DNA of 64,000 bases from an uncultured Candidatus Saccharibacteria bacterium (GCA_964363475.1 CAYIII010000002.1:6661-70660), one strand, 5' to 3'; counted from the stretch's first letter, positions 7,717 to 44,545 are shown. Notes: a model not told the origin generated them from the letters alone. Program-made: numbers and translations.

Positions 7717-7787
7717 AAATTAGGATTTATAAACAAAAACGCCGCAAAAAATCTTTGTGGCGTTTTTGTTTTATTTTTTATGTGCTA

Positions 7788-8081
7788 TTAGAAGCTTGAT
7801 TCTGGATTGCGCTCAGAACCGTGAGTAGAACCTTCCGGTTCGTTAATTTTTAGGTTAACGTGAGCATTATGCTTTATTCCAACAATTCTCAAAAGAGAAC
7901 GGATGGACCTTGCGGTAGAACCTTGTCGGCCAATTACTTGGCCCATATCCTTTGGGCTCACTGACAATGAAAGCAAAACTCCTCGCTCATCTATTGCTCT
8001 GTCCACTTTAACTTCTTCTGGATGGTCAACGATGGACTTAACCAAAAAATCTAAAAATTCTTTATCAGTATTTGTATTCAT
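7788..8081 (-). CDS. KH-domain RNA-binding protein (UPF0109/YlqC-like)
   Basis: 97 aa; GxxG KH motif (IGRQGSTARSIRSLL); located between rpsP and trmD as in many bacteria. Confidence 0.7.
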   Translation of the reverse strand: MNTNTDKEFLDFLVKSIVDHPEEVKVDRAIDERGVLLSLSVSPKDMGQVIGRQGSTARSIRSLLRIVGIKHNAHVNLKINEPEGSTHGSERNPESSF

Positions 8082-21021: not shown

Positions 21022-21840
21022 TTGTTACAATGTGGGGCAATGAATTCTGTCAAAAATGCCGTCATTTTAAGTATAATTTTGATAGTTTTAGCGTCGGCTT
21101 TTTATGCTGGCGAGGCGCGCGCCGAATATGCGGGTATTTGTAGCGGTGAAAAAATTATTGATTCTCAAAGCAATATAAAAATTCCTTTTGGGGCATCTGT
21201 GCATCGTAGGGTTATCAGAGGACGTGACATAACGGTTTTGTGTCCCCCTCGTATTTCCGCGATAAAAATAAATAATGCTCCGGTTTGGTTTCAATTGCCG
21301 ACGCAATCCGCTTTTGCCGGAGGCGGCCTTCAGTTCGTTGTTTCGGCTGCCGATATGGAGCATGATAATTTAACTTACAGAGCGTTGAATCTTCCTAACG
21401 GAGCATTGTTTGATGGGAGTTCAAGAACTTTTACATGGATTCCTACAAATGAACAATTCGGCGTTTATAAAATTATTTTTAGGGCATCAGATGGATTCAA
21501 TTTTTCCGATATGACTGTGGAGATAGATATTTATCCTTACGCCTTTTCTGTTTATCCGATTCCAACTAAATTAAATTTTTTTAATATTAATCCCCCGTTA
21601 ATGGTTAATGAGAAGGAATTGTATATAACCACTCTTCAGGTAAATGGCGGCAATAATTTGTACTACCGAATTATCAACGGCCCAAGGGGCCTAAAAATTG
21701 ATAATAATTTTGGCGTGGTTTATTGGGTTCCTGATATTAATCAGGGAAGACAAGAGCCCTATTTGGTTTCTATCGGGGTTACTAACGGAAAAATTGAAGT
21801 GTCAAAAAGTTTTTATATAACTGTTTATGAAAAAATATAA
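21022..21840 (+). CDS. Secreted protein with two He_PIG/cadherin-like Ig domains (true start probably the Met at 21040)
   Basis: Signal peptide AVILSIILIVLASAFYAGEARA; domain pattern LTYRALNLPNGALFDGSSRTFTWIPTNEQFGVYKIIFRASDG fits the putative-Ig (He_PIG) consensus; second copy YYRIINGPRGLKIDNNFGVVYWVP. Confidence 0.55.
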   Translation: MLQCGAMNSVKNAVILSIILIVLASAFYAGEARAEYAGICSGEKIIDSQSNIKIPFGASVHRRVIRGRDITVLCPPRISAIKINNAPVWFQLPTQSAFAGGGLQFVVSAADMEHDNLTYRALNLPNGALFDGSSRTFTWIPTNEQFGVYKIIFRASDGFNFSDMTVEIDIYPYAFSVYPIPTKLNFFNINPPLMVNEKELYITTLQVNGGNNLYYRIINGPRGLKIDNNFGVVYWVPDINQGRQEPYLVSIGVTNGKIEVSKSFYITVYEKI

Positions 21841-23530
21841 TATAAATTATTTAATTTTTGCGGCTGGATTATTGATGGCTTTTACGGCTCCTGCCGTTTA
21901 TGCCGCCCCTAACGACGTAACAAAAGTGACCACAGACCCCGCTACGAGCCATGTTGATGGCGGTGGCTCATTGATGCTGGATACTAAAACTGGCCTGCTT
22001 ACCGTTGGCAGACAAACCGACCGCAACGCTCCCAGCGTTGATATGCATTTTGTTATTACTTTAGAATCAGGACAAAATTTGCTTCACGTGGCGAATATGA
22101 AGGGAGCGGGAGCCAGTAATCAATTGCCCGGCGGTTGGGGTAATGTCCAAAGCGCTTCTTTTTCTCTCACAAGAGACGTGCCTCGTTATCCCACCAGTCA
22201 TTGCGGTTATAAAACTTCTCCCAGCAATAATTTATATTACAAAGAAGAGGGCTTGCAATACGGATTTCATTGGAGCGATGGTTCTAAAGACAGATGCGGA
22301 CCGATTAGAGTAATTAATGCGGTATGGTTTATAAGTAATGCATTACCAACACCTGCGCCTATACCAACACCTCCGCCAGCGCCTACTCCCCCACCTCCTT
22401 CTCCGATACCCACACCAGTAATTCCTCCACAAATTATTTACCAAGCACCTATTTATCAACCGCCAATTTATCAGCCACCGATTTATCAAACACCTATTTA
22501 TTATCAGTTGCCGGCGTTTTATTATTCGCAAATTTATAACCAGCCGCCTGTCTGGATTCCCGTCCCAAATCAAACAGTTAATGTGGGCAGAGTATTACAA
22601 TTTACAGTATTAGCCGTTGACCCTAATAATGACTATGTAAATTACAGAGTCGGCACTATGCCGGTTGGCGCCTCTTTTAATAGCGACACCAGAACATTTA
22701 TGTGGGTGCCGAGCAGTAATCAATCAGGAATTCATACCGTGATTTTTATTGCCTCTGACCCGTATAACAGCGTTGATATGAGCGTTTATATTCGCGTTGG
22801 CGAAGACGACGCTAAATTAGGATGTTTTGCTCCGTCATTCACTAACGATACTATTCCCGTATCTGCCAAAGAAGGCCAATTATATACCGCAACTATTTTA
22901 GCCAATGGCGGTGGCATCACTTATAAAATAATTAACGGTCCTCAAGGACTAACCATTAATCCTAACTTCGGAGTTATTGTTTGGGCGCCTAATTTTTCTC
23001 AAGGGAAATCAGAATCATATCCGGTGACCGTCAGCGCCGTTAATTGCCAGGGAGAAGTTACTAAAACATTCAATATTACCGTTCAAGATGTTAATGGTGT
23101 TTATACTCCCCCGGTCGTGTCCGCCTGTGCTGGCGAGAAATTATCAATTTATAATATTAAGGTTAGCAATTGGCAAAACAATGTCGCGATTTCTTGGAAC
23201 ACTAACAAACCGGCAACTTCTGGATTGATGTATGATACGGTCTCAAAAGCCGATTTAACCAAAGAATTTAATTATTCTAATTCTTCTCCAATTAACTACA
23301 ACTTGACTACTGACCATAAAATTATTTTGCCTTTATCACAAGCTAACGAGACCTATTATTTCAGAGTGTCTTCTAAAACTGATTGCGATGCGTTAGTTAT
23401 AAGCAGTGAAAGAATTTTTGCGCCTTTATATTATTATGGTTGGATAGGGTGGTGTTTAAGTGTATTATTGTTTTTGGCGTTATTAACGCTTATGACGATA
23501 ATAGTGGCGCTAATAATTAAAAAAAGATAA
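21827..23530 (+). CDS. Large cell-surface protein: signal peptide, Pro-rich linker with QxPIY tandem repeats, He_PIG-like Ig domains, C-terminal hydrophobic anchor ending in KKR
   Basis: 567 aa; PTPAPIPTPPPAPTPPPPSPIPTP then (QxPIY)x4; He_PIG-like VNYRVGTMPVGASFNSDTRTFMWVPSSNQSGIHTVIFIASD; C-terminus GWIGWCLSVLLFLALLTLMTIIVALIIKKR. Confidence 0.55.
   Translation: MKKYNINYLIFAAGLLMAFTAPAVYAAPNDVTKVTTDPATSHVDGGGSLMLDTKTGLLTVGRQTDRNAPSVDMHFVITLESGQNLLHVANMKGAGASNQLPGGWGNVQSASFSLTRDVPRYPTSHCGYKTSPSNNLYYKEEGLQYGFHWSDGSKDRCGPIRVINAVWFISNALPTPAPIPTPPPAPTPPPPSPIPTPVIPPQIIYQAPIYQPPIYQPPIYQTPIYYQLPAFYYSQIYNQPPVWIPVPNQTVNVGRVLQFTVLAVDPNNDYVNYRVGTMPVGASFNSDTRTFMWVPSSNQSGIHTVIFIASDPYNSVDMSVYIRVGEDDAKLGCFAPSFTNDTIPVSAKEGQLYTATILANGGGITYKIINGPQGLTINPNFGVIVWAPNFSQGKSESYPVTVSAVNCQGEVTKTFNITVQDVNGVYTPPVVSACAGEKLSIYNIKVSNWQNNVAISWNTNKPATSGLMYDTVSKADLTKEFNYSNSSPINYNLTTDHKIILPLSQANETYYFRVSSKTDCDALVISSERIFAPLYYYGWIGWCLSVLLFLALLTLMTIIVALIIKKR
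22437..22506 (+). repeat. In-frame 15-bp tandem repeat (about 4.5 copies) encoding QAPIY-QPPIY-QPPIY-QTPIY
   Basis: caagcacctatttat / caaccgccaatttat / cagccaccgatttat / caaacacctatttat. Confidence 0.6.
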
Positions 23531-23562
23531 AAAAACACCCGAACTTCAATTCGGGTGTTTTA
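23531..23562. terminator. Bidirectional intrinsic terminator between convergent surface-protein genes
   Basis: AAAAAACACCCGAACTTCAATTCGGGTGTTTTAG: a 10-bp stem flanked by an A-run and a T-run. Confidence 0.6.
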
Positions 23563-23568
23563 GAAATT

Positions 23569-24777
23569 CTACCTTTGTGGCTCTTGCGCTGCGGCTCTTG
23601 TTAATCGGCCCCATGCTCCGCAAGGCACATTATGCAATGCATCTCCTAAAGCTCCTGCGGCTGGTCCTTTGCCCTCCTTTCTTGAATCTTGGAATTCACA
23701 TACCGCTTTACTTGTTAAATTACCATAATATCCAGTTGCTCCCGTTTCAGCTAACAATCTAGCAATAGGACCAGTACCCCATTTAATTAATAGTTTTTGT
23801 AATTTTTTAACATCATTGCCTTTATCTCCCTTTGATAAGCCAGGCGGTGGTAAATCATCAGAAGACGCGGCGATATTACTTGATATTGATAAGCTGGCCA
23901 ATTGTTTTTGCGCTTCCGGAGAAATAGTTTTTCCGGATTTAACTGAATCTTGTAGTAACGCCAATACTTGAGCGATAAGTCCCGTTAATTGCTGTTTTAC
24001 AGATGCAATTAAAGCGATTCTATTTGAAGAGTCAGCGCCAACTGATGTAGTTGCTTGAGTAGGCGGGATTCCCTTTCCGGGTTTACCCAACACAGTAAAG
24101 TAACTGGTTTTACTGGTCGTAACATTTACTCTTACAACGCCATCTACTGACACCTTGGTTGGTAACGGTTCCCAATTACTATTTGCGCTATCCCAACGAT
24201 AACCTATTAACGAACTAACGTCCTTATTTTTTACTTGCTCTGAAGCATATTCAAATTTAATTTCAATTGTACCGGACAAAACCACGTTGTTTCCCGTAGA
24301 ATCTGATATTTTTACGCTTAATAAATTATCATTTACAGCAGATAAGTTAGATGGCAAGGACCCAACTAATCCATTAACCGATGAAGATCCGTGACTTACC
24401 GCGTTTAATTTAACAACCGCAGTACTAGGAACTCTTTCTGCTGGAACAGTGACGGCCATAACAGTGCCATCATTTGGTTTTACCCCTTCACTAAAACCCA
24501 ACGCTTTACTCACATTAAAAGAAACTTCGTTTTTTATTACTCCTGCATAAGTACCAGATACAGAAACACTGCCTCCGCCTCCACCGCCACCACCACCACC
24601 GCTCCCACCATGAGAAGAACCAAAAGCTACCCTATAAGAAAGAGGCACTCCTGAATTATTAAATAATACCGACGCGACTATAAAAATTACAAAAACAAAA
24701 ATACCAATCGCTGACTTTAAGGACTGGTTTCCCTTTTCGCTTTTTAATAAACTTAAAAAATCTTTGACCATATTCAT
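23569..24777 (-). CDS. Membrane-anchored surface protein with Gly-rich linker and C-terminal peptidoglycan-binding (PG_binding_1-like) domain
   Basis: 402 aa; N-terminal TM; GGSGGGGGGGGGGS; C-terminus DVKKLQKLLIKWG...GYYGNLTSKAVCEFQ matches the PG-binding domain pattern. Confidence 0.55.
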   Translation of the reverse strand: MNMVKDFLSLLKSEKGNQSLKSAIGIFVFVIFIVASVLFNNSGVPLSYRVAFGSSHGGSGGGGGGGGGGSVSVSGTYAGVIKNEVSFNVSKALGFSEGVKPNDGTVMAVTVPAERVPSTAVVKLNAVSHGSSSVNGLVGSLPSNLSAVNDNLLSVKISDSTGNNVVLSGTIEIKFEYASEQVKNKDVSSLIGYRWDSANSNWEPLPTKVSVDGVVRVNVTTSKTSYFTVLGKPGKGIPPTQATTSVGADSSNRIALIASVKQQLTGLIAQVLALLQDSVKSGKTISPEAQKQLASLSISSNIAASSDDLPPPGLSKGDKGNDVKKLQKLLIKWGTGPIARLLAETGATGYYGNLTSKAVCEFQDSRKEGKGPAAGALGDALHNVPCGAWGRLTRAAAQEPQR

Positions 24778-24797: not shown

Positions 24798-26198
24798 TTA
24801 GTTGTCAATATCATTATTGGGGATAACTTCTCCTCTCCAAAAATGTTCGCTAATTTTCTTAAAAAATCCTAGTTGTTTCAAGTCCAACTCCGGTCCTCTT
24901 CTTCCCATATAAATGTATACCTCTTTATTAGAAATTTCTTCTAAATTTACAATGGGATGACCTCCGTATCCCTTTAAAACATGAATATATCTTGTGTCAC
25001 TGCTTGCAACGGGAATACCATTCTCTGTTTTAGAGAATAATTTTATTTCTTCCAGCTCTTTATTATTGATTATTGGCTCCATAACCCAACTTTGATAAGC
25101 AATGTTACCTATTAAAACCACTAAAATAATTGTAAAAATTATCCTCATTAGCTTATTTGTCCAAAATATCTGCAGGAAATTAAGCAAAACTTCTCCGGCC
25201 AGAATAATAAATATGATGTCTAAAAGAATTATGAATCGGTTATGAAATATAAAATTAAGATATACAAAAGAAAAATTCACTAACGCGTAATAAAACAGAA
25301 AAGTAAATTTTTTATTGTAAACCAATCTTATAAATCCCAATATGGCGAATGGAAGATAAATCAGGGCTAAAAAGTTTTGATAAAAATCCAGTTGCACAAA
25401 ATTACCGGCTAATATTTCTGATATGCCTCTCGCGTAATCCCCTCTTAAATACTTTTCCGCGTAATAAACATAACCCCAAAATTTATCCCAGTTAATAAAA
25501 AATGATGATACTAAAACAGAAAAGAAACTAACTAACAAAAAAAATCTATTCTTTTCAAAAATAGAAAATAATAAAATTGTTAATAAAAACGGCAATAGCG
25601 TTAGCGGATGAAAGAATCCGATTAAGATTGCGATAGGAATTAATTGCCACGACTTTTTTTGTATTAAATTGGCGGCAAAAAGCGTAAGCGCTATCGCCGC
25701 CGTCATTTTTGCATAGAAAACCCAATAAACCAAGAATTGGGAAATTGATAGGGAAAAAATTAATAAACTGAAAAACGCCGCTTTCTCATTAAAATATTTT
25801 TTGGTGACTTCATAAATACCGAATCCCGCCAACAGATTAAGCAGAATATGTATTGTATAAATTACCGGTATTGAAACGTACGGTCTGAAATTTTCTATAT
25901 AGACACCGGCGTCGGCCGCCAGCGGAAATTCCCCCCAGCGAAAAAAAGGAATCAATCTTGATAACACTAATATTGAAAAAGGCAGCCAGAGCCAACTTTT
26001 ATTAATTTTTATTTCGCATTCTTTATAATTTAATCCCACCAGCCAATAGAGAAGCAGGGAAAATGTCCAAAAAATTAGTTTGGATGGCCAATTTAGAAGC
26101 GCAGGAGTTGAAAACCAGATGAGTAAAATATATCCTAAGAGAAAAATATGAGGAAAAAATTTTTGGTAACCGGAGGCGCTGGTTTCATTGGTTCTCAT
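24798..26198 (-). CDS. Polytopic membrane protein (about 12 TM; GT-C- or Wzy-like glycan-processing enzyme candidate)
   Basis: 466 aa, hydrophobic throughout, with a ~90-aa C-terminal soluble tail. No diagnostic motif recognised. The annotated start overlaps the divergent gene at 26148, so the true start is probably internal. Confidence 0.4.
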   Translation of the reverse strand: MRTNETSASGYQKFFPHIFLLGYILLIWFSTPALLNWPSKLIFWTFSLLLYWLVGLNYKECEIKINKSWLWLPFSILVLSRLIPFFRWGEFPLAADAGVYIENFRPYVSIPVIYTIHILLNLLAGFGIYEVTKKYFNEKAAFFSLLIFSLSISQFLVYWVFYAKMTAAIALTLFAANLIQKKSWQLIPIAILIGFFHPLTLLPFLLTILLFSIFEKNRFFLLVSFFSVLVSSFFINWDKFWGYVYYAEKYLRGDYARGISEILAGNFVQLDFYQNFLALIYLPFAILGFIRLVYNKKFTFLFYYALVNFSFVYLNFIFHNRFIILLDIIFIILAGEVLLNFLQIFWTNKLMRIIFTIILVVLIGNIAYQSWVMEPIINNKELEEIKLFSKTENGIPVASSDTRYIHVLKGYGGHPIVNLEEISNKEVYIYMGRRGPELDLKQLGFFKKISEHFWRGEVIPNNDIDN

Positions 26199-27086
26199 TT
26201 GTGTGAAAATTTATTGAATAAAGGCAACGAAGTTATTTGTTTTGATAATTTAAGCACAGGAAAACTAAAAAATATAGAGCATATAAAAAACAAAGTTATT
26301 TTTGTAAAAGGAGACGCCAACAGTTTTAATGATTTGGAAGTAATTTTCAAAGAAAATAAATTAAGCGGAGTTTTTCATCACGCGGCTATTGTGGGAGTTA
26401 AACGCACGATGGAGTCCCCCGTTGATGTTCTAAATGATATTGAGAGCGCGCGCAATATTTTAAATTTGGCCTTGAAATACGGCAAGCCCAAAATTATATT
26501 TGCTTCCAGTTCGGAAGTTTATGGTGAACCTGTGGAAATACCGGAATTGGAGAACGGCCACATTAACGCGCAAATACCTTATGCCGTAACGAAACTGTAT
26601 TGCGAAAAACTTATGTCGGCTTATTGGCAAAAATATAAACTTCCGACCTGTTCTTTAAGATTTTTTAATGTTTACGGCCCTCGCCAGGAGTCCAGCGATT
26701 ACGGTTTTGTTATCGGTATATTTATTAAGAGTGTCCTGCGGGGTATGTCGCCTGTAATATACGGAGACGGCACGCAAACGCGTGATTTTGTTTACATTGA
26801 CGATAATGTGGAGGCCTCCATTAAAGCGCTGGAATCGCGGACTAACGGAGAAGTAATAAATATTGGTACGGGAAGGCCGACTACAATTTTGGATTTAGCC
26901 GAAAAAATTATTGCTCTTTGCGGACTCAAGAAAAATTTAAAGCCAAAATTTATTAAACATAGGGATGATGTAAGGCATCGTTTTCCTGATATCGGTAAAA
27001 TGAAAAACTTATTAAATTTTACGTCCCGATATAATCTTAAAAGCGGTTTAGAAAAAACAATAAATTGGTATAAAAAAGAGATATGA
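26148..27086 (+). CDS. NAD-dependent nucleotide-sugar epimerase/dehydratase (UXS/GalE-like SDR)
   Basis: 312 aa; TGGAGFIGSHL Rossmann motif, YAVTK (YxxxK) catalytic motif. Confidence 0.8.
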   Translation: MRKKFLVTGGAGFIGSHLCENLLNKGNEVICFDNLSTGKLKNIEHIKNKVIFVKGDANSFNDLEVIFKENKLSGVFHHAAIVGVKRTMESPVDVLNDIESARNILNLALKYGKPKIIFASSSEVYGEPVEIPELENGHINAQIPYAVTKLYCEKLMSAYWQKYKLPTCSLRFFNVYGPRQESSDYGFVIGIFIKSVLRGMSPVIYGDGTQTRDFVYIDDNVEASIKALESRTNGEVINIGTGRPTTILDLAEKIIALCGLKKNLKPKFIKHRDDVRHRFPDIGKMKNLLNFTSRYNLKSGLEKTINWYKKEI

Positions 27087-27754
27087 AAGTTGCCTTGGTA
27101 ATTCCGGCTCATAACGAAGAAAAAAATATACAAAACGTAATTAAAAAATCAGCCAGTTACGTTGATTGGGTGATTATTGTTAATGATGGTTCAAGCGATG
27201 CCACTAAAAAGATATGCGAGGCAAATCGTTGCGATAAAAAAATAATATTGCTTAACCATAAAATTAATTTAGGCAAGGGCTCCGCTTTGAAGACGGGATG
27301 TGAGGCGGCCCGTAAATTAGGCAGTGATATTATTGTCACAATTGACGGCGACGGCCAACATTCCCCGGAGTATATTCCTAAAATTTTACAGTATATGGAG
27401 TCCAATAAATTGGATTTTATTTTTACCGTTCGTCAAGGTGGCGACAAGATGCCCTTGATTCGCTTTCTGGGCAATAGAACTTTAAATTTGACTGCCCAAT
27501 GTCTTTTTAATGTCAATTTAAAGGATATGTGGTGTGGTTTTAGAGCGTTTCGCGTCAGTTGCCTACCTAAAATCTCTTGGAGTAAAAGCGATTATTCCGG
27601 AGAAATCCAAATGGCGCTCAAAGTCGGGAAAAATAAAATTACTTACGGAGAATATGCCATTCCCACTATTTACAGCGACAATGTTAAGGGAGTTCATATT
27701 TTGCATGGGCTCAAGTTATTGTTGCAAATGATTGTGTGGCGTATAATGCTATAA
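27083..27754 (+). CDS. GT2 glycosyltransferase, polyprenol-phosphate sugar synthase-like (DPM1/ArnC/GtrB type)
   Basis: 223 aa; VIPAHNEEKNI...VNDGSSDAT...DGDGQH (DxD). Confidence 0.75.
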   Translation: MKVALVIPAHNEEKNIQNVIKKSASYVDWVIIVNDGSSDATKKICEANRCDKKIILLNHKINLGKGSALKTGCEAARKLGSDIIVTIDGDGQHSPEYIPKILQYMESNKLDFIFTVRQGGDKMPLIRFLGNRTLNLTAQCLFNVNLKDMWCGFRAFRVSCLPKISWSKSDYSGEIQMALKVGKNKITYGEYAIPTIYSDNVKGVHILHGLKLLLQMIVWRIML

Positions 27755-28098
27755 AAATGATTGGCATTCAACTTATAGGTGTTGTTGTCGGATTGGCGGC
27801 TATTCATCTTACTTATCTCTATTATAAAAGGTCTAATTTTACTAAAAAAGAATTGTTTTTTTGGGGATTTATTTGGCTAACCTTCGTTTTTGTTTCTGTT
27901 TTTCCCAGAAGCGTATCTCCTCTAGTCGGTTATTTGGGCTTGAGTAGGCCGATGGATTTAATAATGATTGTCGCTTTTGTTATTTTATTTATGCTTACCT
28001 TTCATAATTACATAGTCAATAGACAGCAAAAACAGAAATTAGAAAGATTAGTTAGAGAATTAGCGCTGAAGGATATAGATGGTAATGAGTTCCGTTAA
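27736..28098 (+). CDS. Small integral membrane protein associated with the GT2 gene (DUF2304/GtrA-like candidate)
   Basis: 120 aa, 3-4 TM helices, basic C-terminal tail; 4-nt-scale overlaps with its neighbours. Confidence 0.4.
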   Translation: MAYNAIKMIGIQLIGVVVGLAAIHLTYLYYKRSNFTKKELFFWGFIWLTFVFVSVFPRSVSPLVGYLGLSRPMDLIMIVAFVILFMLTFHNYIVNRQQKQKLERLVRELALKDIDGNEFR

Positions 28099-29227
28099 AA
28101 GTATTTTGATTTTTGCCGCTTTTTACCATCCCTATAAAGGCGGTTATGTTGAAAGCATTCATGGATTATCTGTCGGGCTTCTGCAAAGAGGATATGAAAT
28201 CACCATCGTTGCTTGTGGTGAGCAGGGTCGAACCACTTGTGGTGAGATAGATGGGATTAAATTGTATAATTTGTCTTGCTGGAATCCGGATTGGTTAAAT
28301 AATAGTTTTCCTATTCCTCACCCATACAGCGTTTATAAGGTATTAAAAATTCTATATAAAAAAAATTTTGATTATATTTTAACCAATACCCGTTTTTTTA
28401 TTTCAACATGGCTCGGCTTTATTTTTGGCAAATCGCTTGGATTGCCGGTGATTCACATAGAAAGAGGCGGCCAACATTCTTCAACCGGAAATTTGTTTAT
28501 TAATTTTGTGGCTAAAATAGTAGACCACACTATCGGTTTCATTATTGTCCGTTTTTCTAATGTTGTTGTCGGCGTGTCAGAAGCCACCTGTTCTTTTTTA
28601 TTGCATCTTGGGGCTGTTAAACCTGTCAAAATTTATAATGGAATTAGCGTGGCGCCTGAAAAAAATGTAATTTATAAAAATAATTTGCCGTATAAAATTA
28701 CTTTTGTTGGCCGCTTAATTTATGCGAAAGGACTAACTGAATTGGTTCAGGCAACTGCATCTCTTTCGGATAATATAATTGTGCAAATAATTGGAGGCGG
28801 CCCATATAAAAAAGATTTGGAGAAAATAATTAATGAACTAAAGCTCAATAAAAAAATTATTTTTTTAGGGGAATTGAATCACCAAGAAATAATAAATATT
28901 CTTTTAGAATCAACTATTTTTATTAATCCTTCATATTCAGAGGGCCTACCTCGCTGTGTATTAGAGGCTGGTTCTGTTGGGCTTCCCGTTATTGCCACTG
29001 ATGTGGGCGGCACCAAAGAAATAATTTGCAATGAAGAACACGGCATTTTAATAATTCCAAAAAATATTGAAGCGATTATCGTAAGTATTAATAAATTAAT
29101 CAATGATATTGACTTAAGAGAGAGATTGGGAAGAAATTTAAAAAATCGCGTCAAGTTAGTTTTTAACTGGGATGAAATTGTCTCAAGATATGAAAAAGAA
29201 TGTTTTAATACTCACAACATTTTATAA
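28079..29227 (+). CDS. GT4 (GT-B fold) glycosyltransferase
   Basis: 382 aa; EGLPRCVLEAGSVGLPVIATDVGG (the E-x7-E motif region). Confidence 0.8.
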   Translation: MVMSSVKSILIFAAFYHPYKGGYVESIHGLSVGLLQRGYEITIVACGEQGRTTCGEIDGIKLYNLSCWNPDWLNNSFPIPHPYSVYKVLKILYKKNFDYILTNTRFFISTWLGFIFGKSLGLPVIHIERGGQHSSTGNLFINFVAKIVDHTIGFIIVRFSNVVVGVSEATCSFLLHLGAVKPVKIYNGISVAPEKNVIYKNNLPYKITFVGRLIYAKGLTELVQATASLSDNIIVQIIGGGPYKKDLEKIINELKLNKKIIFLGELNHQEIINILLESTIFINPSYSEGLPRCVLEAGSVGLPVIATDVGGTKEIICNEEHGILIIPKNIEAIIVSINKLINDIDLRERLGRNLKNRVKLVFNWDEIVSRYEKECFNTHNIL

Positions 29228-30293
29228 GCCGTTTATTGGCGGGGCTGAAGTTTTTGTAGAAGAGATTACTAAAAGACTAAATAAAGATTTTAATTTTTTT
29301 ATTTTCACCACAAAAAACTTAAAGAATCTTCCCAGAAAAGAAATTATTGATAACACAGTGATTTATCGTCTGGGTTTTGGTTCTAAATACGATAAGTTTT
29401 TTTTTCCTTTTTTAGCGTTGATAAAAAGTTATTCCGTTAATTTTGATTTCTCATACGCTATTATGGCAAGTTACGCCGGCGCGGCGGCTCTCTTAATTAA
29501 ATTTTTTAGAAGAAAAGAATACATATTAAATATGCAAAGCGGAACTTTAGATACTAAAAATTATTTAAAAATATTAAAACTTTTTTGGTTTTTTTACAAA
29601 AAAATACACACCGAAGCATTATTTATTCATGTTATAAGCAATGCTCTTAAAGAAAGGGCCATAAAATTTGGCGTACCAATAAATAAAATATTTCTTATTC
29701 CTAACGGAATAGATTTGAGTAATTTCAAAGTATTGAGTTTGAATAGAAATTATTGGCAAATGATTTCGGTAGCCAATTTAAAAAAAGTAAAAGGACTGGA
29801 ATATCTTTTGCGTGCCATGCCAATAATAACGACCAAATTTCCTCAAGTAAAACTTTTATTAGTTGGTGATGGAGAGGAAAGAATTTTTTTGGAGAATTTA
29901 GTTAATGATTTAAAGATAGAAAATCATGTCCAATTTTTAGGTACGATTTGTCGCGATAAAATACCTGATATTTTGAATCATTCTAATATCTTTATCGGGC
30001 CTTCTTTAGCAGAGGGCCTGGGAATCGCTTTTTTGGAAGCCATGGCCTGCGGGGCTATTGTTATTGGCACAAAAGTTGGAGGGATTTGTGATATTATCAA
30101 AAATCATTATAATGGTCTATTAATAGAGCCCGCCAATTATATGGAGATTGCAAATAGCGTTTTATATCTATTAGAAAATAAAACCGTGTTGGAATCTTTA
30201 AGAAGCAATGCTTTAAAATTTGTTAAGGAATATGATTGGAATATTATTTCTTTTTCCATAAAATCATTGCTGGAAAAATATGAAAAAAGTTAG
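29172..30293 (+). CDS. GT4 glycosyltransferase
   Basis: 373 aa; EGLGIAFLEAMACGAIVIGTKVGG. Confidence 0.8.
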   Translation: MKLSQDMKKNVLILTTFYKPFIGGAEVFVEEITKRLNKDFNFFIFTTKNLKNLPRKEIIDNTVIYRLGFGSKYDKFFFPFLALIKSYSVNFDFSYAIMASYAGAAALLIKFFRRKEYILNMQSGTLDTKNYLKILKLFWFFYKKIHTEALFIHVISNALKERAIKFGVPINKIFLIPNGIDLSNFKVLSLNRNYWQMISVANLKKVKGLEYLLRAMPIITTKFPQVKLLLVGDGEERIFLENLVNDLKIENHVQFLGTICRDKIPDILNHSNIFIGPSLAEGLGIAFLEAMACGAIVIGTKVGGICDIIKNHYNGLLIEPANYMEIANSVLYLLENKTVLESLRSNALKFVKEYDWNIISFSIKSLLEKYEKS

Positions 30294-30894
30294 AAAAATA
30301 AAATCTTTAATTTTTTATACGGTTTCATTTTTAATGATAATTTTAATCTCTATATTTTTTTCGTCTTTAGTTACTTTAAATGTCATTTATTCTTGCTCTA
30401 ATCAAATAAGAAACGGTTATTTATCGGAATTTTTATGTGGTGATGTTGGGAAGACAGTAGAGGAAATTAAAGAAGATGAGTTTGTTTGGATAAAGCCAGA
30501 AGATATTTTACGAGCGTATTCTAATGATATTTTAGAGATAAATGAAAAAAGCAAAGCCGACAAATTAATTGATGGAGACATTAACACCGGCGCTTATCCC
30601 GGAAACAAGCAATTTGATTACATAGTTGAATTCATAGACGAGTACGAAATAAGTAGAATAGAGCTTATTTGGGGCGGCAGTGGAACGAGCAGACAACATA
30701 TCCAAGAATGGTCTTTAGAGTCCAAGTCCGGTTTATTGGGAGAATGGCAAGTTGTGGCTGGCGAGAAAGAATCTCTGGGCACGGAAAAAACGGTTTTAGA
30801 TATAAATATAAAAGCGGACTCTATAAAAATTCGTGCGAGTTCTCAAGATAATTGGATTGGAATTTTAGAGGTAAAAATCTTAAGAAAATCTTAG
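30280..30894 (+). CDS. Membrane-anchored protein with discoidin (F5/8 type C) carbohydrate-binding-like domain
   Basis: 204 aa; N-terminal TM; LIDGDINTGAYPGNKQFDYIVEFIDEYEISRIELIWGG...WQVVAG resembles the discoidin-domain consensus (xIDGdxxTxW...vDLg...i.xv.l.W). Confidence 0.45.
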   Translation: MKKVRKIKSLIFYTVSFLMIILISIFFSSLVTLNVIYSCSNQIRNGYLSEFLCGDVGKTVEEIKEDEFVWIKPEDILRAYSNDILEINEKSKADKLIDGDINTGAYPGNKQFDYIVEFIDEYEISRIELIWGGSGTSRQHIQEWSLESKSGLLGEWQVVAGEKESLGTEKTVLDINIKADSIKIRASSQDNWIGILEVKILRKS

Positions 30895-32968
30895 ATAAGG
30901 GAATAATCAGTAGGCAAGAAAAAAACAATAAAAATGGCATTAACGGCACGGAATGTCTTCGTTGGTCGACGGCAAAAAGGATAATAGTTGCGAGATGAGT
31001 CCATATAAATCCTCCGGTAATTAAATAATCCTTTCTTTTAGCCATTTTGGAAAATAAACTAGGTTTTAAAATAAATAAAATAGAGCAGACAAGGAATAGG
31101 ACAAACGGAATGGAGAGCCAAAGAGTTGCCTCGCTGGCACTAAAACCCAAAAAATAAAATAATCTTTGCGTTATTAATCTTAAATAGTCCAACGGCTGTT
31201 CTAATATCCACTGGATTGACGGAAAAGCTCTTGAGTCAAAAAAAATATTAGCAAAATTCATTACTGTATCGTAGTTTTTTTCTAAAGGCACATAATTATT
31301 AGGCACATGATTGGCTTGAACAAAATTAATTGTAACCGCTGGTTCTGATATTAAAATAAATTTACCGGTTAATAACCAATTTCTAGCCAAAAATGGTATT
31401 AATGGCAATATTATTCCTGTTACAAAAATAACAAACGGGACTAAAAAATATTTTTTAAAACTAAATATGAACCATAAAAATATAACCAGCATCATCGCCG
31501 CCATATTATTTCTCATTAGAATGCTTAATCCTAAAAATATTCCGGCCGTAAAAAAGTAAATCAAAGCCCCCCACTTTTTATTTTTATTGTCGCTAATTTT
31601 TCTTTCTGCTAGAAAAAGAAACAATATCACTAATGCTATTAGCAGTGTGCCAACAGGAAACATCTGAAACGCTTGTTTAAGCGTAATTGGATTGAGGGCA
31701 ATTAATACTAAAAGGGGTAAAAATATCAAAGAATCTTTTTTTATAAATAATTTACAAATCCAAACGACTATCAATGCTGCCAAAAGAACTGAAATTAATT
31801 GGAAAAATATTATAGGGAATAATGGCTCTCCCATTAGATAATGAGCAATAACTAGGGCGTGATAATATAAAATTTGATAATAATAACCGTAACCTGTTTC
31901 TAGGGCGCTCATACTCCAATTACCTGTTAATTGAACGTGTCTTGCAAATGTCTCATAAGTTAAAGGATCATTGCCGGTAATTAAAACATTAAAATATTCC
32001 GAATTTATTTGACCAAGTAATTTTTTTATCAATAAACCGAAACTCAATAAAAAAGACATAAAAATATAAAAACGCAAAGATAAGAACCATCCCTTCCAAT
32101 TTTCTTTATAAATAAGCAGGGTTAGAATTATTAAAATAAGTAAAAATATTATAATTTTTATAAAATTATCAATAAAATTTACGACATTATCACTATATAT
32201 TTGAAAATTTGAGTATTTTTGAGGGAAAAGACGGGTATTTAAAATATCAAGTTTTAAAAATTGCGTTGTTCCCTGTCCCCTGTGATAAATTAATTCTATC
32301 GGAACTAATTTATCAGTCGCATTTAATTCAATATGCTTATTATTTTTTTGAATGCTTAATTGGTCACTTCCTTGAACATCTAAAATTTTATCTTTATTTA
32401 TATATAATTCCGCCCTATTATCGGTAGATAAATCAATTTTTAAGGCACTTAAACCTGGATTATAAATATAACCTTTCCAGACAACGCTAATAGGAATAGT
32501 ATGGCTTCTTATATTGGGGTCATTAAATTTTGTATTATTATTTAAAAACCAAAACTGAAATGGTTTTTTATGGAAAGAATATCCAATACTTTCAAAATTA
32601 ATTTCCTCATCAATTCTTGTGCCGTCTATTTTGGGATTTATGAATTCGGTGGATTTCTGCAAAACCCCGTTTTCAATTGACGGTTGATAGTAATAACCCA
32701 TTAATCCTTCCGGTAAAGAAATAATTCCGAGCAATATTTTTATTATTATAATCAGCAGTATTATATAACTTGCTGGTCGCAATATTAAAACGTGTTTTTT
32801 TTGAAAATTTTTAAACTGAGGCAAGAAAAAAATAAAAAAAGCAGCTAATAAAACTAAAAAAAACAATTCATGAAATTGGCTTAATGGAATTCCGTCAAAC
32901 CAGCCATTTCTGCCAGAGATAATAAAGAATAAAACACATAAAAGAAAAATCAGCACATTGATAGTCAA
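30821..32968 (-). CDS. Large polytopic membrane protein with PA14-like extracytoplasmic insert (GT-C superfamily, GT39/GT83-like candidate)
   Basis: 715 aa; 2 TM, then a ~180-aa soluble insert (IDGTRIDEEINFESIGYSF...VVWKGYIYNPGLSALKIDLSTDNRAELYINKDKIL, PA14-like), then more than 10 TM helices. Confidence 0.45.
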   Translation of the reverse strand: MTINVLIFLLCVLFFIISGRNGWFDGIPLSQFHELFFLVLLAAFFIFFLPQFKNFQKKHVLILRPASYIILLIIIIKILLGIISLPEGLMGYYYQPSIENGVLQKSTEFINPKIDGTRIDEEINFESIGYSFHKKPFQFWFLNNNTKFNDPNIRSHTIPISVVWKGYIYNPGLSALKIDLSTDNRAELYINKDKILDVQGSDQLSIQKNNKHIELNATDKLVPIELIYHRGQGTTQFLKLDILNTRLFPQKYSNFQIYSDNVVNFIDNFIKIIIFLLILIILTLLIYKENWKGWFLSLRFYIFMSFLLSFGLLIKKLLGQINSEYFNVLITGNDPLTYETFARHVQLTGNWSMSALETGYGYYYQILYYHALVIAHYLMGEPLFPIIFFQLISVLLAALIVVWICKLFIKKDSLIFLPLLVLIALNPITLKQAFQMFPVGTLLIALVILFLFLAERKISDNKNKKWGALIYFFTAGIFLGLSILMRNNMAAMMLVIFLWFIFSFKKYFLVPFVIFVTGIILPLIPFLARNWLLTGKFILISEPAVTINFVQANHVPNNYVPLEKNYDTVMNFANIFFDSRAFPSIQWILEQPLDYLRLITQRLFYFLGFSASEATLWLSIPFVLFLVCSILFILKPSLFSKMAKRKDYLITGGFIWTHLATIILFAVDQRRHSVPLMPFLLFFSCLLIIPLSKIFLRFLPLKFQSNYLENSHEFL

Positions 32969-33013
32969 TCTCGCATAGTTTGATATTCAAAACAAGTACT
33001 ATAGAATGAGGAA

Positions 33014-33712
33014 ATGAATAATAAGCTATCTCGAGTTTCTTTCTTTTGCCCGGCTTATTTTGAAGAAAAAAACTTGCCGATTCTTATTCCCAAAGCTATT
33101 TCTTTATTATCAAAAATTGCCGATCAATTTGAAATTATCATCGTTGAAGATGGCAGTCCCGATAAAACTGGGGAAGTGGCTGATAATTTATCAAGTAAAT
33201 ATCCTTGCGTCAGAGTTATACATCATCATCATAATCTTGGTTATGGCGCGTCTTTAAGAGACGGATTTTGTAATGCTAAGTATGAATATATAATGTATAC
33301 TGACGGAGATAATCAATATGATATTGATGAATTTATACCTTATATGCACTTGCTGTCTGACGCAGACATTATTAGTGGATATGCTACCAAAAAAGCTTTA
33401 ACGCCTTTAAGAAAAACTCAATCAGCCATATTTAATTTATTGGTCAAAATTTTATTTTTTGTAAATATTAAAGATATTAATTGCTCAATGAAGATTTATA
33501 AGAGGAAAGTTTTGGATTTAGTGTCCATAAAAAGCACTAGCGCATTTATTGATGCCGAAATGCTTATTAAGGCCAGTAGATTAGGTTTTACGATTGCGCA
33601 ATTTCCCGTTACTCATTATCCGAGAAATAGCGGTGTGGCTAGCGGCTCTAATCCCGGCGTTATTGTTTCTACAATAAAAGATATGTTTAAGTTTAGGTTT
33701 GGATTGCTCTGA
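33014..33712 (+). CDS. GT2 glycosyltransferase, polyprenol-phosphate sugar synthase-like
   Basis: 232 aa; CPAYFEEKNL...IIVEDGSPDKTGEVA...YTDGDNQYD. Confidence 0.75.
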   Translation: MNNKLSRVSFFCPAYFEEKNLPILIPKAISLLSKIADQFEIIIVEDGSPDKTGEVADNLSSKYPCVRVIHHHHNLGYGASLRDGFCNAKYEYIMYTDGDNQYDIDEFIPYMHLLSDADIISGYATKKALTPLRKTQSAIFNLLVKILFFVNIKDINCSMKIYKRKVLDLVSIKSTSAFIDAEMLIKASRLGFTIAQFPVTHYPRNSGVASGSNPGVIVSTIKDMFKFRFGLL

Positions 33713-34625
33713 TCAGATTATGACAAAAAATAATGTAATGTTAGTAACTGGTTGTGGTGGAATGTTAGGGGAAGCCGTCTATAATTTTTTTAAAGATAAG
33801 TGTAAGGTTTTTGCTACCGATATTGATATTAATGAAAAGTGGCTGTCCTATTTAGATGTTAATTCCGTGTCATCTTTAAAGAAAACCTGCGATAAAATAA
33901 AACCAAATTTTATAATTCATTTAGTCGCCTTAACTGATTTGGAATATTGTGAATCTAATCCGGAAAAGGCCTATCAAATAAATACTTGGGGTGTTTATAA
34001 TGTTGTTGCGGAAGCTCATAAGAGAAAAATTCCTCTTGTTTGCATGTCTACTGCCGGCGTTTTTGACGGATTAAAAGGAAAATATAAAGAAGACGACCTG
34101 CCCAATCCAATTAGCATTTATGGCAAATCTAAATATTTAAGTGAATTAATTGCCTGTTCTTATGAAAAAGCCATTGTTATAAGAGCCGGATGGATGATAG
34201 GCGGCGGTCCTAAGAAAGACAAAAAATTTGTCAATAAAATTATACAAAAAATAAATGCGGGGAATGAAGAAATAGCCGTGGTTAATGATAAATTTGGCAG
34301 TCCTTCTTATACATATGATTTGGTTAAAGTTATGTATTTTTTATTAAAGAATAAAAAATACGGTCTTTTTCATGGTTGTTGCGGTGGAAGTTGTAATAGA
34401 CTAGACATTGCCAATCAGATTATTTCTTTAATGGGCATGAGTGATAAGATAAAAATTAAAATTGTGGATTCCAAATATTTTAATAAAGATTATTTTGCTC
34501 CTCGACCAGTTTCAGAAAATTTGATTAACTCAAAATTAAATCTAATAGGCGTCAATCTAACCAGAGATTGGCGAGATGCTTTAAAAGATTATTTAGGTAG
34601 GTTTGATTGGTTATCACACAAATGA
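33699..34625 (+). CDS. SDR-family nucleotide-sugar reductase (RmlD/dTDP-4-dehydrorhamnose-reductase-like)
   Basis: 308 aa; VTGCGGMLG Rossmann, YGKSK (YxxxK). Confidence 0.6.
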   Translation: MDCSDQIMTKNNVMLVTGCGGMLGEAVYNFFKDKCKVFATDIDINEKWLSYLDVNSVSSLKKTCDKIKPNFIIHLVALTDLEYCESNPEKAYQINTWGVYNVVAEAHKRKIPLVCMSTAGVFDGLKGKYKEDDLPNPISIYGKSKYLSELIACSYEKAIVIRAGWMIGGGPKKDKKFVNKIIQKINAGNEEIAVVNDKFGSPSYTYDLVKVMYFLLKNKKYGLFHGCCGGSCNRLDIANQIISLMGMSDKIKIKIVDSKYFNKDYFAPRPVSENLINSKLNLIGVNLTRDWRDALKDYLGRFDWLSHK

Positions 34626-35296
34626 AAATTTGTTTGTCATTTCACACCGAACGATTGCATGATGATAAAACTTGGAGCCAAATTAAATGGCTTGTTGAAT
34701 TATTAAATAAATTTAATATCCGAGCCGTGTGGTTTTCTGTTAACCCAACCTTTTTCCTTTATAAGGAAATGGGGTTTGATGAAAAAAAATGGATTGAAAG
34801 GCTTAAGTATTTGTCTAGTCATAACCAAAAAATAGAACAACACACAACTTTTTATTTTAAAAATAAACAAGAATGTAATTTAGAACCAAATTATATCAGA
34901 AAGAGATTATTAGAAGATAAAAAATGGCTTGAAAATCATGGACATTGCATCTCTGGTTTTGTGAGCGGGACTTGGATAATTAATAATGACGTAATTAATG
35001 CTTTGAATGAATTAAATTATAAATATGATTGCACGGCTCGGATGTTTAACTTGAATTATCTTAAAAATAATCCTAATCAGATGATTATTAATAATCCTAT
35101 AAAAATTGGTAATATTTGGGAAATTCCCACAACAGCTCCCGTCAAATATATTTTTTTAAAATCTAAAGGCAATTATAAAATGGTTTATCTTCATGATTAT
35201 GATTTAAATAATTTTATAATTAGAAATTTATTAAAAGCATTCATTATATTAAACAGTAAAAAACAATTTGTAACTCCTTTGGAACTTAATATATGA
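34607..35296 (+). CDS. Hypothetical protein (possibly polysaccharide-deacetylase-like)
   Basis: 229 aa; no confident motif. Confidence 0.3.
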   Translation: MVITQMKICLSFHTERLHDDKTWSQIKWLVELLNKFNIRAVWFSVNPTFFLYKEMGFDEKKWIERLKYLSSHNQKIEQHTTFYFKNKQECNLEPNYIRKRLLEDKKWLENHGHCISGFVSGTWIINNDVINALNELNYKYDCTARMFNLNYLKNNPNQMIINNPIKIGNIWEIPTTAPVKYIFLKSKGNYKMVYLHDYDLNNFIIRNLLKAFIILNSKKQFVTPLELNI

Positions 35297-37681: not shown

Positions 37682-38754
37682 ATGTTTTAGCTATTGTGCA
37701 AAGAATGGACCATAACGATCCTTTTGGAGGTTTTATTTTTGACTGGATGATTGCTTTATCAAAAAAAGTAGATAGATTAGTGATACTAACATTAAAGAAA
37801 AATATAAAACTTCACGATGTGCCGAATAATGTCAGTATTTATTCTTTAGGTAAGGAAAAATATACCGGTTTTGGTTGTTGGCTTTTTTATCTTTATAACT
37901 GGCATCAGAATATTAAACAAATATTAAAAAAAGAAAAAATAGATATTGTATTTACTCATATGACGCCGACTTATTCGGTTTTAGCTTATCCGTATTTTTT
38001 TAGAAAAAAAATACCCATTGTAACTTGGTTTCTTCATCCTAAATTATCAGTAGTTCTTAAATTAGCTCATTATTGTTCGGCTAAAATTGTTTCGGCAATG
38101 CCGGCTTCTTATCCTTATAAAAAAGATAAGTTGATAGCAATAGGCCACGGTGTTAATACGGAAATTTTTAATTATGGAGAAGCTAATGATGATAAAAAGA
38201 TTATTTTAAGCGTCGGCAGATTGTCCCCTATCAAGGATTACGTTACTTTATTAAAAGCCGTTGCGTTGGGAGGCAAGCAATTCAAATTATTTATCATAGG
38301 AAGCTCGACTGATAGTAAAGACAGAAAATATGAAAAAGAGCTTTTAGATATTATTCGTATTTTAAATTTAGAAGAAAAAGTAAAGATTTTACCGGCGATG
38401 GCTATGAATGATTTATCTTATTGGTATAAACAATGTTTTGTTTTGGTTAATGCAACCCCGAATGGTTCTTTTGATAAAGTAGCGTTGGAGGCAATGGCTT
38501 GTAAAAAATTAATTTTAGTTGCAAGTAATAATTTTCAAGAAATTCTTGGTCCTTACCGTGATGAGCTTCTTTTTAAATTTGGAGATCATAATGATTTACA
38601 TAATAAATTAATTTCTATTTTCAATCTGCCTTCAAGCAAAAGAGATCAAATTACGCTATATCTTCAACGAAAAATAATCGAAGAATATAGTTTAGATAGC
38701 TTAATGGAAAGATTGGTTAAGGTTTTTGAATCAGTTAATGCTGAAAATATATGA
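37678..38754 (+). CDS. GT4-like (GT-B) glycosyltransferase
   Basis: 358 aa; FDKVALEAMACKKLILVASNN. Confidence 0.65.
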   Translation: MNVLAIVQRMDHNDPFGGFIFDWMIALSKKVDRLVILTLKKNIKLHDVPNNVSIYSLGKEKYTGFGCWLFYLYNWHQNIKQILKKEKIDIVFTHMTPTYSVLAYPYFFRKKIPIVTWFLHPKLSVVLKLAHYCSAKIVSAMPASYPYKKDKLIAIGHGVNTEIFNYGEANDDKKIILSVGRLSPIKDYVTLLKAVALGGKQFKLFIIGSSTDSKDRKYEKELLDIIRILNLEEKVKILPAMAMNDLSYWYKQCFVLVNATPNGSFDKVALEAMACKKLILVASNNFQEILGPYRDELLFKFGDHNDLHNKLISIFNLPSSKRDQITLYLQRKIIEEYSLDSLMERLVKVFESVNAENI

Positions 38755-41771: not shown

Positions 41772-41789
41772 TGGTGTTATTAAATAATA

Positions 41790-44541: not shown

Positions 44542-44545
44542 TAAA

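Follow-up and report, generated by a model that had tools for sequence, protein, structure and literature searches.

The pairing of a synthase of the GtrB, ArnC or GacI type with a glycosyltransferase of the GT-C fold is a logic of glycosylation that is already known. In the Mycobacterium tuberculosis system consisting of PpgS (Rv3631), Rv3632 and Rv3779, which decorates arabinogalactan with galactosamine (GalN), the GT-C enzyme transfers the sugar from polyprenyl phosphate to the wall polysaccharide. In Streptococcus pyogenes, GacI makes N-acetylglucosamine (GlcNAc)-P-undecaprenol and the GT-C enzyme GacL then moves the GlcNAc onto polyrhamnose, while GacJ, a DUF2304 protein of 113 aa, binds GacI, lowers its Km for undecaprenyl phosphate (Und-P) and raises its Vmax (bioRxiv 10.1101/180810). 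EpaI and EpaJ are analogous to GacI and GacJ (PMC8327497), and another DUF2304 protein, Rv3632, stimulates PpgS as GacJ does GacI (as cited in bioRxiv 10.1101/180810). Here we describe a stretch of 64,000 nucleotides (hereafter the window) from an uncultured Candidatus Saccharibacteria bacterium (GCA_964363475.1, CAYIII010000002.1:6661-70660), in which the family and fold assignments, the estimated topologies, the conserved catalytic-type loop residues and the conserved gene linkage make it likely that two modules for extracytoplasmic glycosylation, parallel to each other and both of the "three-component" type, are encoded; they are referred to below as modules A and B. A preliminary description of this DNA had proposed that synthases of lipid-linked monosaccharides lie here beside GT-C transferases, forming a machinery for extracytoplasmic glycosylation, and this proposal is supported by the families, the fold and the linkage. 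The open reading frames (ORFs) that it listed were all recovered at the same positions, as were the flanking He_PIG (21022, 21827) and PG_binding_1 (23569) genes.

In module A, as in the GacI/GacJ/GacL system, a glycosyltransferase family 2 (GT2) protein of about 225 aa without any transmembrane (TM) helices is followed by a three-TM DUF2304 activator of about 113 aa, with a GT-C gene nearby and a wall-polysaccharide cluster as its setting. Module A differs from that system in that no GacK/Wzx-type flippase is encoded in the window, the gene for a peptidoglycan (PG)-binding protein shares the operon of the GT-C gene, and the organism is a member of the Candidate Phyla Radiation (CPR). The synthase, GT2a (27083-27754, + strand, 223 aa; PF00535, 93 bits), resembles GacI and PpgS: its best NCBIfam match is PpgS (93 bits), followed by AglJ, the Dol-P-hexose transferase and ArnC, PgfS being present among the matches as well, and it carries the sequence TIDGDGQH, which is the DxD metal/nucleotide motif of the GT-A GT2 domain. 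GT2a and its counterpart in module B, GT2b, are 27% identical, and no TM helices are predicted in either of them. Both had been described at the outset as small GT2s of the DPM1/ArnC/GtrB type, and the best matches are indeed polyprenyl-phosphate-sugar synthases: the closest solved structures by sequence are ArnC (E about 1e-13; 1.5e-13 in the case of GT2a), the dolichyl-phosphate mannose synthase (DPMS) of P. furiosus and GtrB, and the nearest characterised relatives in NCBIfam and the PDB are lipid-phosphate-sugar synthases, not polymerising or soluble-acceptor GT2s.

The gene directly downstream of GT2a, with which it shares a 19-nt overlap and is translationally coupled, encodes a DUF2304 protein of 120 aa (27736-28098, + strand; PF10066, 81.8 bits, threshold 25.5). 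Its three TM helices and its membership of the GacJ/Rv3632 family agree with its earlier description as a multi-TM partner, and by analogy with GacJ it is probably the membrane partner and activator of GT2a. The operon on the + strand begins with a gene for a GalE-like nucleoside diphosphate (NDP)-sugar epimerase/dehydratase of the short-chain dehydrogenase/reductase (SDR) family (26148-27086, + strand; Pfam Epimerase, 206 bits; NCBIfam galE, 177 bits, below the cut-off), which probably supplies the nucleotide sugar for GT2a. It continues after the DUF2304 gene with two glycosyltransferase family 4 (GT4) genes (28079-29227, + strand, Glycos_transf_1, 139 bits; 29172-30293, + strand, Glycos_transf_1, 144 bits) and ends with a discoidin gene, all of these genes showing tight overlaps of 4-56 nt in the window. 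The preliminary description had compared the locus with Ppm1/Pmt or ArnC/ArnT systems; the comparison with ArnC/ArnT holds for module B, whereas module A is nearer to GacI/GacJ/GacL or PpgS/Rv3632/Rv3779 than to Ppm1/Pmt. Module A has in common with the mycobacterial system the best NCBIfam match of its GT2 and the DUF2304 partner, and the adjacent 4-epimerase-like SDR would fit a donor of the UDP-GalNAc or UDP-Gal type; on the other hand, GT2a scores only 93 bits against the PpgS cut-off of 370 and is no equivalog, and the GT-C partners are unrelated in sequence.

The GT-C partner in module A is a polytopic protein of 466 aa with a small C-terminal extracytoplasmic domain (24798-26198, − strand), called GT-C466 here, which has no match in Pfam or NCBIfam and for which a word search gave only 14 relatives. 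The AlphaFold2 (AF2) model built from the alignment of these 14 relatives is confident (pLDDT 80.9, pTM 0.83), and the top Foldseek matches obtained with this model are all GT-C enzymes, transporters appearing only at probabilities of 0.18 or less. The first loop, which the model would place outside the cytoplasm, contains D96, in a segment reading PLGYDxGIY in the consensus of the relatives and PLAADAGVY in the window copy; this residue is conserved in at least 90% of the 14 relatives, and H197, R321 and D327 are also conserved in the family. Two of the 14 relatives reach PMT_2. Because the model is confident, the Foldseek matches agree and the first-loop Asp is conserved, GT-C466 is assigned on its predicted structure to the GT-C enzymes, as the preliminary description had suggested. 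No GT-C match was obtained in the PDB in single-sequence or profile searches, either for GT-C466 or for the 715-aa protein of module B, and GT-C466, having no detectable sequence family, is likened to GacL by its gene setting, not by its sequence. The long ORF of GT-C466 (24798-26198, − strand) overlaps the divergent SDR gene (26148-27086, + strand) head to head by 51 nt, and a form of 413 aa, starting 53 codons further in, is annotated in the databases; the longer form is probably real, since both extra N-terminal helices are kept in the relatives.

The closest structural neighbours of GT-C466 are the oligosaccharyltransferases (OSTs) STT3, AglB and PglB, which it resembles down to the small C-terminal domain. 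It might therefore be asked whether GT-C466 is a minimal, highly diverged enzyme of the OST lineage, with GT2a priming polyprenyl phosphate like AglJ of Haloferax, the two GT4s of the operon building a short lipid-linked oligosaccharide on it and this product being transferred en bloc to protein, as by AglB. AglJ is the second-best NCBIfam match of GT2a, a GT4 always follows the GT2a-DUF2304 pair, and the relatives of GT-C466 read SPW[IV]YGYS after the last TM helix, roughly where the OSTs carry their WWDYG motif. We consider this unlikely, however, as IHVLKGYG stands there in the window copy, neither the second acidic motif (DxD/DxH) nor the conserved Glu of external loop 5 (EL5) is evident in GT-C466, and the C-terminal domain comprises only about 90 aa, as compared with several hundred in the OSTs. 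In addition, no OST was retrieved in the PDB profile search, no Pfam or NCBIfam match with STT3 was found in the family, and the GacI/GacJ/GacL precedent accounts for the same genes without any en bloc transfer. Membership of the OSTs by the usual criteria was rejected on motifs and profiles. If it were nevertheless an OST-like enzyme, GT-C466, together with the AglJ-like GT2, the DUF2304 protein and the GT4s, would constitute an archaeal-style protein glycosylation system in Patescibacteria based on a monophosphate carrier, the targets being the PG-binding protein or other surface proteins.

The PG-binding protein just mentioned is a membrane protein of 402 aa (23569-24777, − strand) in which a poly-Gly/Ser linker joins an N-terminal TM helix to a C-terminal PG_binding_1 domain (Pfam, 27.8 bits). 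Its gene lies 20 nt downstream of that of GT-C466 in the same operon, and homologues are found directly downstream of the GT-C466 orthologues in L008 (E 6e-27) and L011 (E 1.6e-8), two of the related contigs or loci (L005 to L018) that were annotated by phmmer and by means of their called genes. It is thus a candidate acceptor or wall-tethering partner of GT-C466. The two He_PIG genes (21022, 21827) form a separate unit, which converges on a strong intrinsic-terminator-like bidirectional hairpin with a 13-bp stem (23532-23561) located between the He_PIG operon (+ strand) and the GT-C466/PG-binding operon (− strand), and they have no counterpart in L008, a syntenic locus in which the PG-binding gene has GatB as its immediate neighbour. 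The preliminary description had named both the PG-binding protein and the He_PIG proteins as upstream acceptors: the former stays a candidate, its gene being co-operonic with GT-C466 and conserved beside it, whereas the He_PIG proteins were rejected as dedicated acceptors in view of the intervening terminator and the lack of conserved adjacency. In one of them, He_PIG567 (21827-23530, + strand), a linker rich in Pro and Thr leads into QPPIY-like repeats (PTPAPIPTPPPAPTPPPPSPIPTP...IYQPPIYQPPIYQTPIY), and a TM anchor is present at the C-terminus; this mucin-like linker is a candidate O-glycosylation site in a gene which is not conserved beside the modules.

These neighbours raise the possibility of protein O-glycosylation of the Pmt, PgtC2 or Pgf type, in which the donor mechanism would be the same and only the acceptor would differ, the sugar being transferred by one or both of the GT-C enzymes to Ser/Thr residues in the disordered linkers of exported proteins such as the PG-binding protein and possibly He_PIG. 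This is a less likely reading, although it deserves serious consideration. The PG-binding protein, encoded directly downstream of GT-C466 in L008 and L011 as in the window, carries beyond its TM anchor a Gly/Ser-rich linker on the extracytoplasmic side, the linker of He_PIG567 reads PTPAPIPTPPPAPTPPPPSPIPTP, PMT_2 is a Pfam family matched by the relatives of the transferases, and the streptococcal GtrB+PgtC2 and Pgf systems (GT2 + epimerase + GT-C) glycosylate disordered linkers (PMC11092751), PgfS being one of the matches of GT2a. Against this, the He_PIG genes belong to a convergent unit behind a terminator and are absent from L008, both modules sit within a very large cluster of genes for glycan synthesis, and module B includes two carbohydrate-binding folds, PA14 and discoidin, which are better suited to a glycan acceptor. 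Transfer to a surface glycopolymer, at least by module B, is therefore the reading that we prefer.

Module A can be written as [TM/poly-Gly/PG_binding_1 protein] <- GT-C466 <-> (SDR) GT2a-DUF2304-GT4. This arrangement was found in L008/L009 (38% identity) and, without DUF2304, in L011 (36%); in L005, the GT-C466 homologue is truncated at the end of the contig, and L010 has the SDR-GT2a-DUF2304-GT4 arm, the contig stopping before any GT-C466 gene. The GT2a-DUF2304 pair is kept in L005, L008/9 and L010, in all of which the first GT4 gene (28079) directly follows it. The second GT4 gene is also present in L010, and the SDR gene keeps its position in L010 and L011.

In module B, the putative transferase is a protein of 715 aa with about 13-14 TM helices (30821-32968, − strand), named PA14-GT-C here, in which TM1-3, a PA14 domain and TM4 form an N-terminal extension, while the PMT_2-type core starts from TM5. 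Taken alone, the protein gives a PMT_2 (PF13231) match of 19.8 bits, as compared with a threshold of 26.1, starting at residue 372, a sub-threshold match with the putative glycosyltransferases LA_3751/LA_3752 (E 1.2e-7) and only 13 bits with PA14. The family is under-represented in the word-index search, which yielded just six relatives, and an exhaustive HMM search seeded with the alignment of these six gave 1,882 clusters at E < 1e-3, including 280 below 1e-10, many of which match over their full length of 650-730 aa. When 70 full-length relatives were analysed, PMT_2 was found at E < 1e-3 in 45 (best E 2.5e-15) and PA14 in 20, and none of them matched any transporter families. These profile matches support the assignment of the 715-aa protein to a family combining PA14 with PMT_2, with a predicted GT-C core. 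An N-terminally shortened version of 626 aa, omitting three conserved helices, is annotated by NCBI, and the longer form is likewise favoured here.

The PA14 domain (residues ~88-250, between TM3 and TM4; 32219-32707, − strand) occupies most of a soluble stretch at about residues 81-261 and was detected at E 5e-4 with the profile of the six relatives; comparisons between a profile of 93 relatives and solved PA14 domains gave 7e-25 for 6qdi, 4e-24 for RsgI3 and 5e-14 for the anthrax protective antigen. An N-in topology is favoured by the hydropathy profile together with the positive-inside rule (17 Lys/Arg residues in the cytoplasmic loops versus six in the outside flanks), and the PA14 domain and the loop following TM5 are therefore both predicted to lie outside. 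That loop, which is predicted to be the first extracytoplasmic loop of the GT-C core (31823-32011, − strand), carries D334-x4-E339-x3-R343 (GNDPLTYETFARH), about 40 residues before the start of the PMT_2 match; D334 is conserved in 69 of the 70 relatives, E339 in 64 and R343 in 66. The first-loop acidic motif of the ArnT/PMT-type enzymes sits at the matching position. An acidic motif of this kind was looked for in both large membrane proteins and was found in both, as D96 in GT-C466 and as D334/E339/R343 here. The preliminary description had spoken of a polytopic protein with a PA14-like insert: the polytopic nature and the PA14 assignment are confirmed, but the predicted topology places the domain in the four-helix N-terminal extension preceding the core, rather than in a loop of the core itself.

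The question arises here as to whether the two large membrane proteins could be transporters, Wzx flippases or Wzy-type polymerases/ligases acting on the polymer of the cluster, in which case the glycosyltransfer model would fail. The window otherwise lacks an exporter and a polymerase, and weak EpsG matches (E >= 0.0013) occur in three of the 14 relatives of the 466-aa protein. With PMT_2 present in 45 of the 70 relatives of the 715-aa protein and transporter families in none, and with the acidic first loop conserved in both proteins, this explanation is nevertheless very improbable; it was rejected on the fold in the case of the 466-aa protein, no profile match supports it in that of the 715-aa family, and it can be regarded as already largely refuted. 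Both proteins are treated below as GT-C transferases.

The synthase of module B, GT2b (33014-33712, + strand, 232 aa; PF00535, 82 bits), is divergent from PA14-GT-C, from which it is separated by a gap of 45 nt. Its best NCBIfam match is ArnC (61.5 bits), the others including PgaC (over the N-terminal stretch only) and then the Dol-P-hexose transferase, PgfS, AglJ and PpgS. It aligns with residues 7-208 of the ArnC structure, with conservation of the DGS-D, DxD-Q and D..C..Y(K/R)R elements (YRR in GT2b), YTDGDNQ in GT2b being aligned with TLDADLQ in ArnC. Directly after GT2b comes the gene for an RmlD-like NDP-4-keto-sugar reductase (33699-34625, + strand; PF04321, 186 bits; TIGR01214, 187 bits, below the cut-off of 224), which adjoins GT2b in L007 as well and probably supplies its sugar substrate. 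Two genes after GT2b, and followed by two methyltransferase genes, lies a gene for a DUF2334-like protein (34607-35296, + strand; PF10096, 24 bits, threshold 26; NCBIfam GlcNAc-phosphatidylglycerol deacetylase, 22.9 bits) with no match in the PDB; as a weak lead, both matches being sub-threshold, it possibly deacetylates a lipid-linked amino sugar in an ArnD-like step.

On the other side of PA14-GT-C, the last gene of the + operon encodes a protein of 204 aa with one N-terminal TM helix and a discoidin (F5/8 type C) domain (30280-30894, + strand; PF00754, 31.9 bits, threshold 28.2), as had been noted earlier; no PDB sequence match was obtained with it. Homologues are present in L006, L007 and L014, and the domain makes it a probable extracytoplasmic glycan-binding accessory of PA14-GT-C. 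The discoidin and PA14-GT-C genes converge and, judging from their stop codons, overlap at their 3' ends by 74 nt (30821-30894). Overlaps of this kind were also observed in L006 (92 nt, 4134-4225), L007 (59 nt, 7760-7818) and L014 (24 nt, 4408-4431), so that an opposite-strand coding overlap of 24-92 nt occurs in every relative having both genes, and in a relative with no discoidin neighbour (P0006, L005), the GT-C lacks a C-terminal tail of about 27 residues.

Module B, which can be written as GT2b <-> PA14-GT-C -><- discoidin, was found in L006 (38% identity), L007/L010 (68%) and, without the discoidin gene, in L008; the linkage of the genes is kept among relatives of the two modules at 27-68% identity. 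A locus search performed with an alignment of 715-aa relatives gave one genome locus and two metagenome loci only. In distant relatives of PA14-GT-C, the divergent partner is a UbiA-family protein, the best NCBIfam match of which is decaprenyl-phosphate phosphoribosyltransferase (194 bits in L014, 164 bits in L015, and 118 bits in L005, where a gene for an HAD-IIIA phosphatase is also present), all these scores being under the equivalog cut-offs; in L016, the UbiA gene lies 1.3 kb upstream of the PA14-GT-C relative. The strongest comparative argument in favour of a polyprenyl-monophosphate sugar as the donor of PA14-GT-C is therefore that the family is partnered by two unrelated kinds of polyprenyl-phosphate-sugar synthases.

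Module B resembles the ArnC/ArnD/ArnT route, in which undecaprenyl-phosphate-4-amino-4-deoxy-L-arabinose (Und-P-L-Ara4N) is used to modify lipid A, in the ArnC motifs of GT2b, the divergent GT-C of the PMT_2 superfamily, which is comparable to ArnT, and the weakly matching DUF2334 deacetylase-like gene; an Arn-like set consisting of the GT-C with an SDR, a DegT aminotransferase and a GT2 of 311 aa was found in L017, a diderm contig. The differences are that GT2b lacks the C-terminal TM helices of ArnC, that ArnT lacks the extension of four TM helices and PA14, and that ArnE/F was not found in the window. Lipid A itself would not be expected in a CPR bacterium of the Gram-positive type. The loci combining UbiA with PA14-GT-C (L005, L014, L015 and L016, with the HAD phosphatase in L005) recall the mycobacterial decaprenyl-phosphate-arabinose route, which involves the UbiA protein Rv3806c (decaprenylphosphoryl-5-phosphoribose [DPPR] synthase), a phosphatase and the Emb/Aft GT-C enzymes, the common principle being that a synthase of a lipid-phosphate pentose is combined with a GT-C enzyme; unlike that route, the window has a GT2 in place of UbiA, and the DprE1/E2 epimerase was not seen in the UbiA loci. 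The arabinosylation of pilin by TfpW in Pseudomonas is reportedly related to the same route.

The scheme that we propose infers from these genes which lipid carrier and sugars are used, that the lipid-linked sugars are flipped and what accepts them. The GalE-like SDR of module A would make a nucleotide sugar, the sugar of which GT2a, aided by the DUF2304 protein as GacI is by GacJ, would load onto polyprenyl phosphate at the cytoplasmic face of the membrane. The lipid-linked sugar would be flipped across the membrane by a flippase whose gene is not in the window, and GT-C466 would then pass it to an acceptor outside. In module B, a second polyprenyl-phosphate sugar would be made by GT2b, the ArnC-like synthase, from a substrate provided by the RmlD-like reductase, and PA14-GT-C would use it outside the membrane, where the PA14 domain and the TM-anchored discoidin protein would hold the glycan acceptor. 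Since PA14 and discoidin both belong to the folds that bind carbohydrates, module B most likely has a glycan as its acceptor, plausibly the cell-surface glycopolymer produced by the downstream glycan cluster of more than 30 kb. The acceptor of module A could be either the polymer of this cluster or the Gly/Ser-rich linker of the PG-binding protein.

Several points weigh against this scheme. In contrast with the three-component GtrA/GtrB/GtrX type, no dedicated flippase is encoded along with the synthase and the GT-C in the 64-kb window, no flippase of the GtrA, Wzx or ArnE/F type having been found among its genes; it is possibly encoded elsewhere. GT2b has no TM helices, and no gene for a membrane partner is visible beside it. 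The scores of both GT2s (93 bits for GT2a and 61.5 bits for GT2b at best) are far under the NCBIfam equivalog cut-offs, which are 370 bits for PpgS, 529 for ArnC and 325 for AglJ, and the sugars of GT2a and GT2b therefore cannot be named. The hhalign comparison between the GT-C466 and PA14-GT-C families gave a probability of only 54%. Lastly, the acceptors have been proposed on the basis of gene adjacency and lectin-type domains, which do not tell a protein acceptor apart from a glycan.

The window is part of a bacterial chromosome, with genes for DnaE, a class II aminoacyl-tRNA synthetase and GatB at 10-18 kb. In Hainich groundwater, identical genes were found on contigs of the 0.1-µm fraction (ENA ERZ1292643), and the sole relative of PA14-GT-C in the genome collection belongs to a Candidatus Saccharibacteria metagenome-assembled genome (MAG), with 68% identity and conserved synteny. 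These findings point to an ultra-small groundwater organism, probably of the CPR/Patescibacteria. At about 24-26 kb, the GC content drops from ~0.39-0.41 to 0.28-0.34, and from 26 kb to the end of the window, nearly all the genes are related to glycans, including about 15 GT2 and GT4 genes and many genes for NDP-sugar-modifying enzymes, methyltransferases and a TagF-like enzyme. The drop in the GC content and the long glycan cluster form a pattern typical of variable surface-glycan islands. This glycan-synthesis cluster is more than 38 kb long (window ~24000-64000), almost unidirectional, and extends beyond the end of the window. GT-C466, the DUF2304 protein and PA14-GT-C are the only three multi-spanning membrane proteins encoded in the whole 64-kb window, in which no gene of the Wzx, Wzy, ABC permease, GtrA or WecA/WbaP type was found; the glycan cluster in the window thus includes no exporter, no polymerase and no initiating phosphoglycosyltransferase. 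Promoter scanning gave 50 candidates in the window as compared with a shuffled expectation of 44 ± 8, which is no excess.

Some other genes of the cluster are worth describing. A P-loop kinase of the shikimate kinase family (PF01202, 113 bits; 41238-41870, − strand), encoded on the opposite strand in the middle of the cluster, may be a sugar or glycan kinase instead of an enzyme of the aromatic pathway. The presence of a sugar C-methyltransferase (Methyltransf_13/14; 41790-43028), a thiamine-pyrophosphate enzyme (47835-49631) and a set composed of a GHMP kinase, an NTP-transferase and GDP-mannose-dehydratase-like enzymes (43561-46271) suggests the synthesis of branched-chain and/or heptose-derived deoxysugars. 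The gene at 38751-40940 (+ strand) encodes a protein of 729 aa which has a GT4 domain at its N-terminus and whose C-terminal half, some 370 aa long, is without any Pfam match, and GT4 proteins of about 730 aa are encoded at the matching position in L005 and L007. An AsnB-like amidotransferase of the asparagine-synthase type adjoins the modules in L005 (8474-10174), L008 (6193-7887), L011 (2009-3754) and L018 (1461-3395), and is absent from the module in the window itself.

Module A is new in being a sequence-orphan member of the GacI/GacJ/GacL and PpgS/Rv3632/Rv3779 kind, and module B differs from ArnC/ArnT by the PA14-bearing extension, the separate membrane-anchored discoidin partner and a GT2b having no TM helices. 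In the literature searched, no paper was found that linked the PA14 domain to glycosyltransferase family 39, or Patescibacteria to glycosyltransferases of the GT-C type, nor any description of a lectin domain built into a transferase of this kind, and surface glycosylation is termed "unexplored" in a paper on the pili of Saccharibacteria and other CPR bacteria (bioRxiv 10.1101/2024.11.25.624915). Two families which lend themselves to experimental tests emerge from this analysis: PMT_2 GT-C enzymes bearing a PA14 domain, which comprise some 1,900 sequence clusters in bacteria and are accompanied by an ArnC-like GT2 or a DPPR-synthase-like UbiA protein and often by a membrane-anchored discoidin protein; and small Pfam-orphan GT-C enzymes whose fold is STT3-like and which are coupled to a synthase of the GacI/GacJ type and to a PG-binding protein. 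Both of them extend the known scheme in which a lipid-phosphate sugar is used by a GT-C enzyme. As Saccharibacteria and other CPR bacteria live attached to their hosts, their surface glycans probably play a part in recognising the host and in evading phages.

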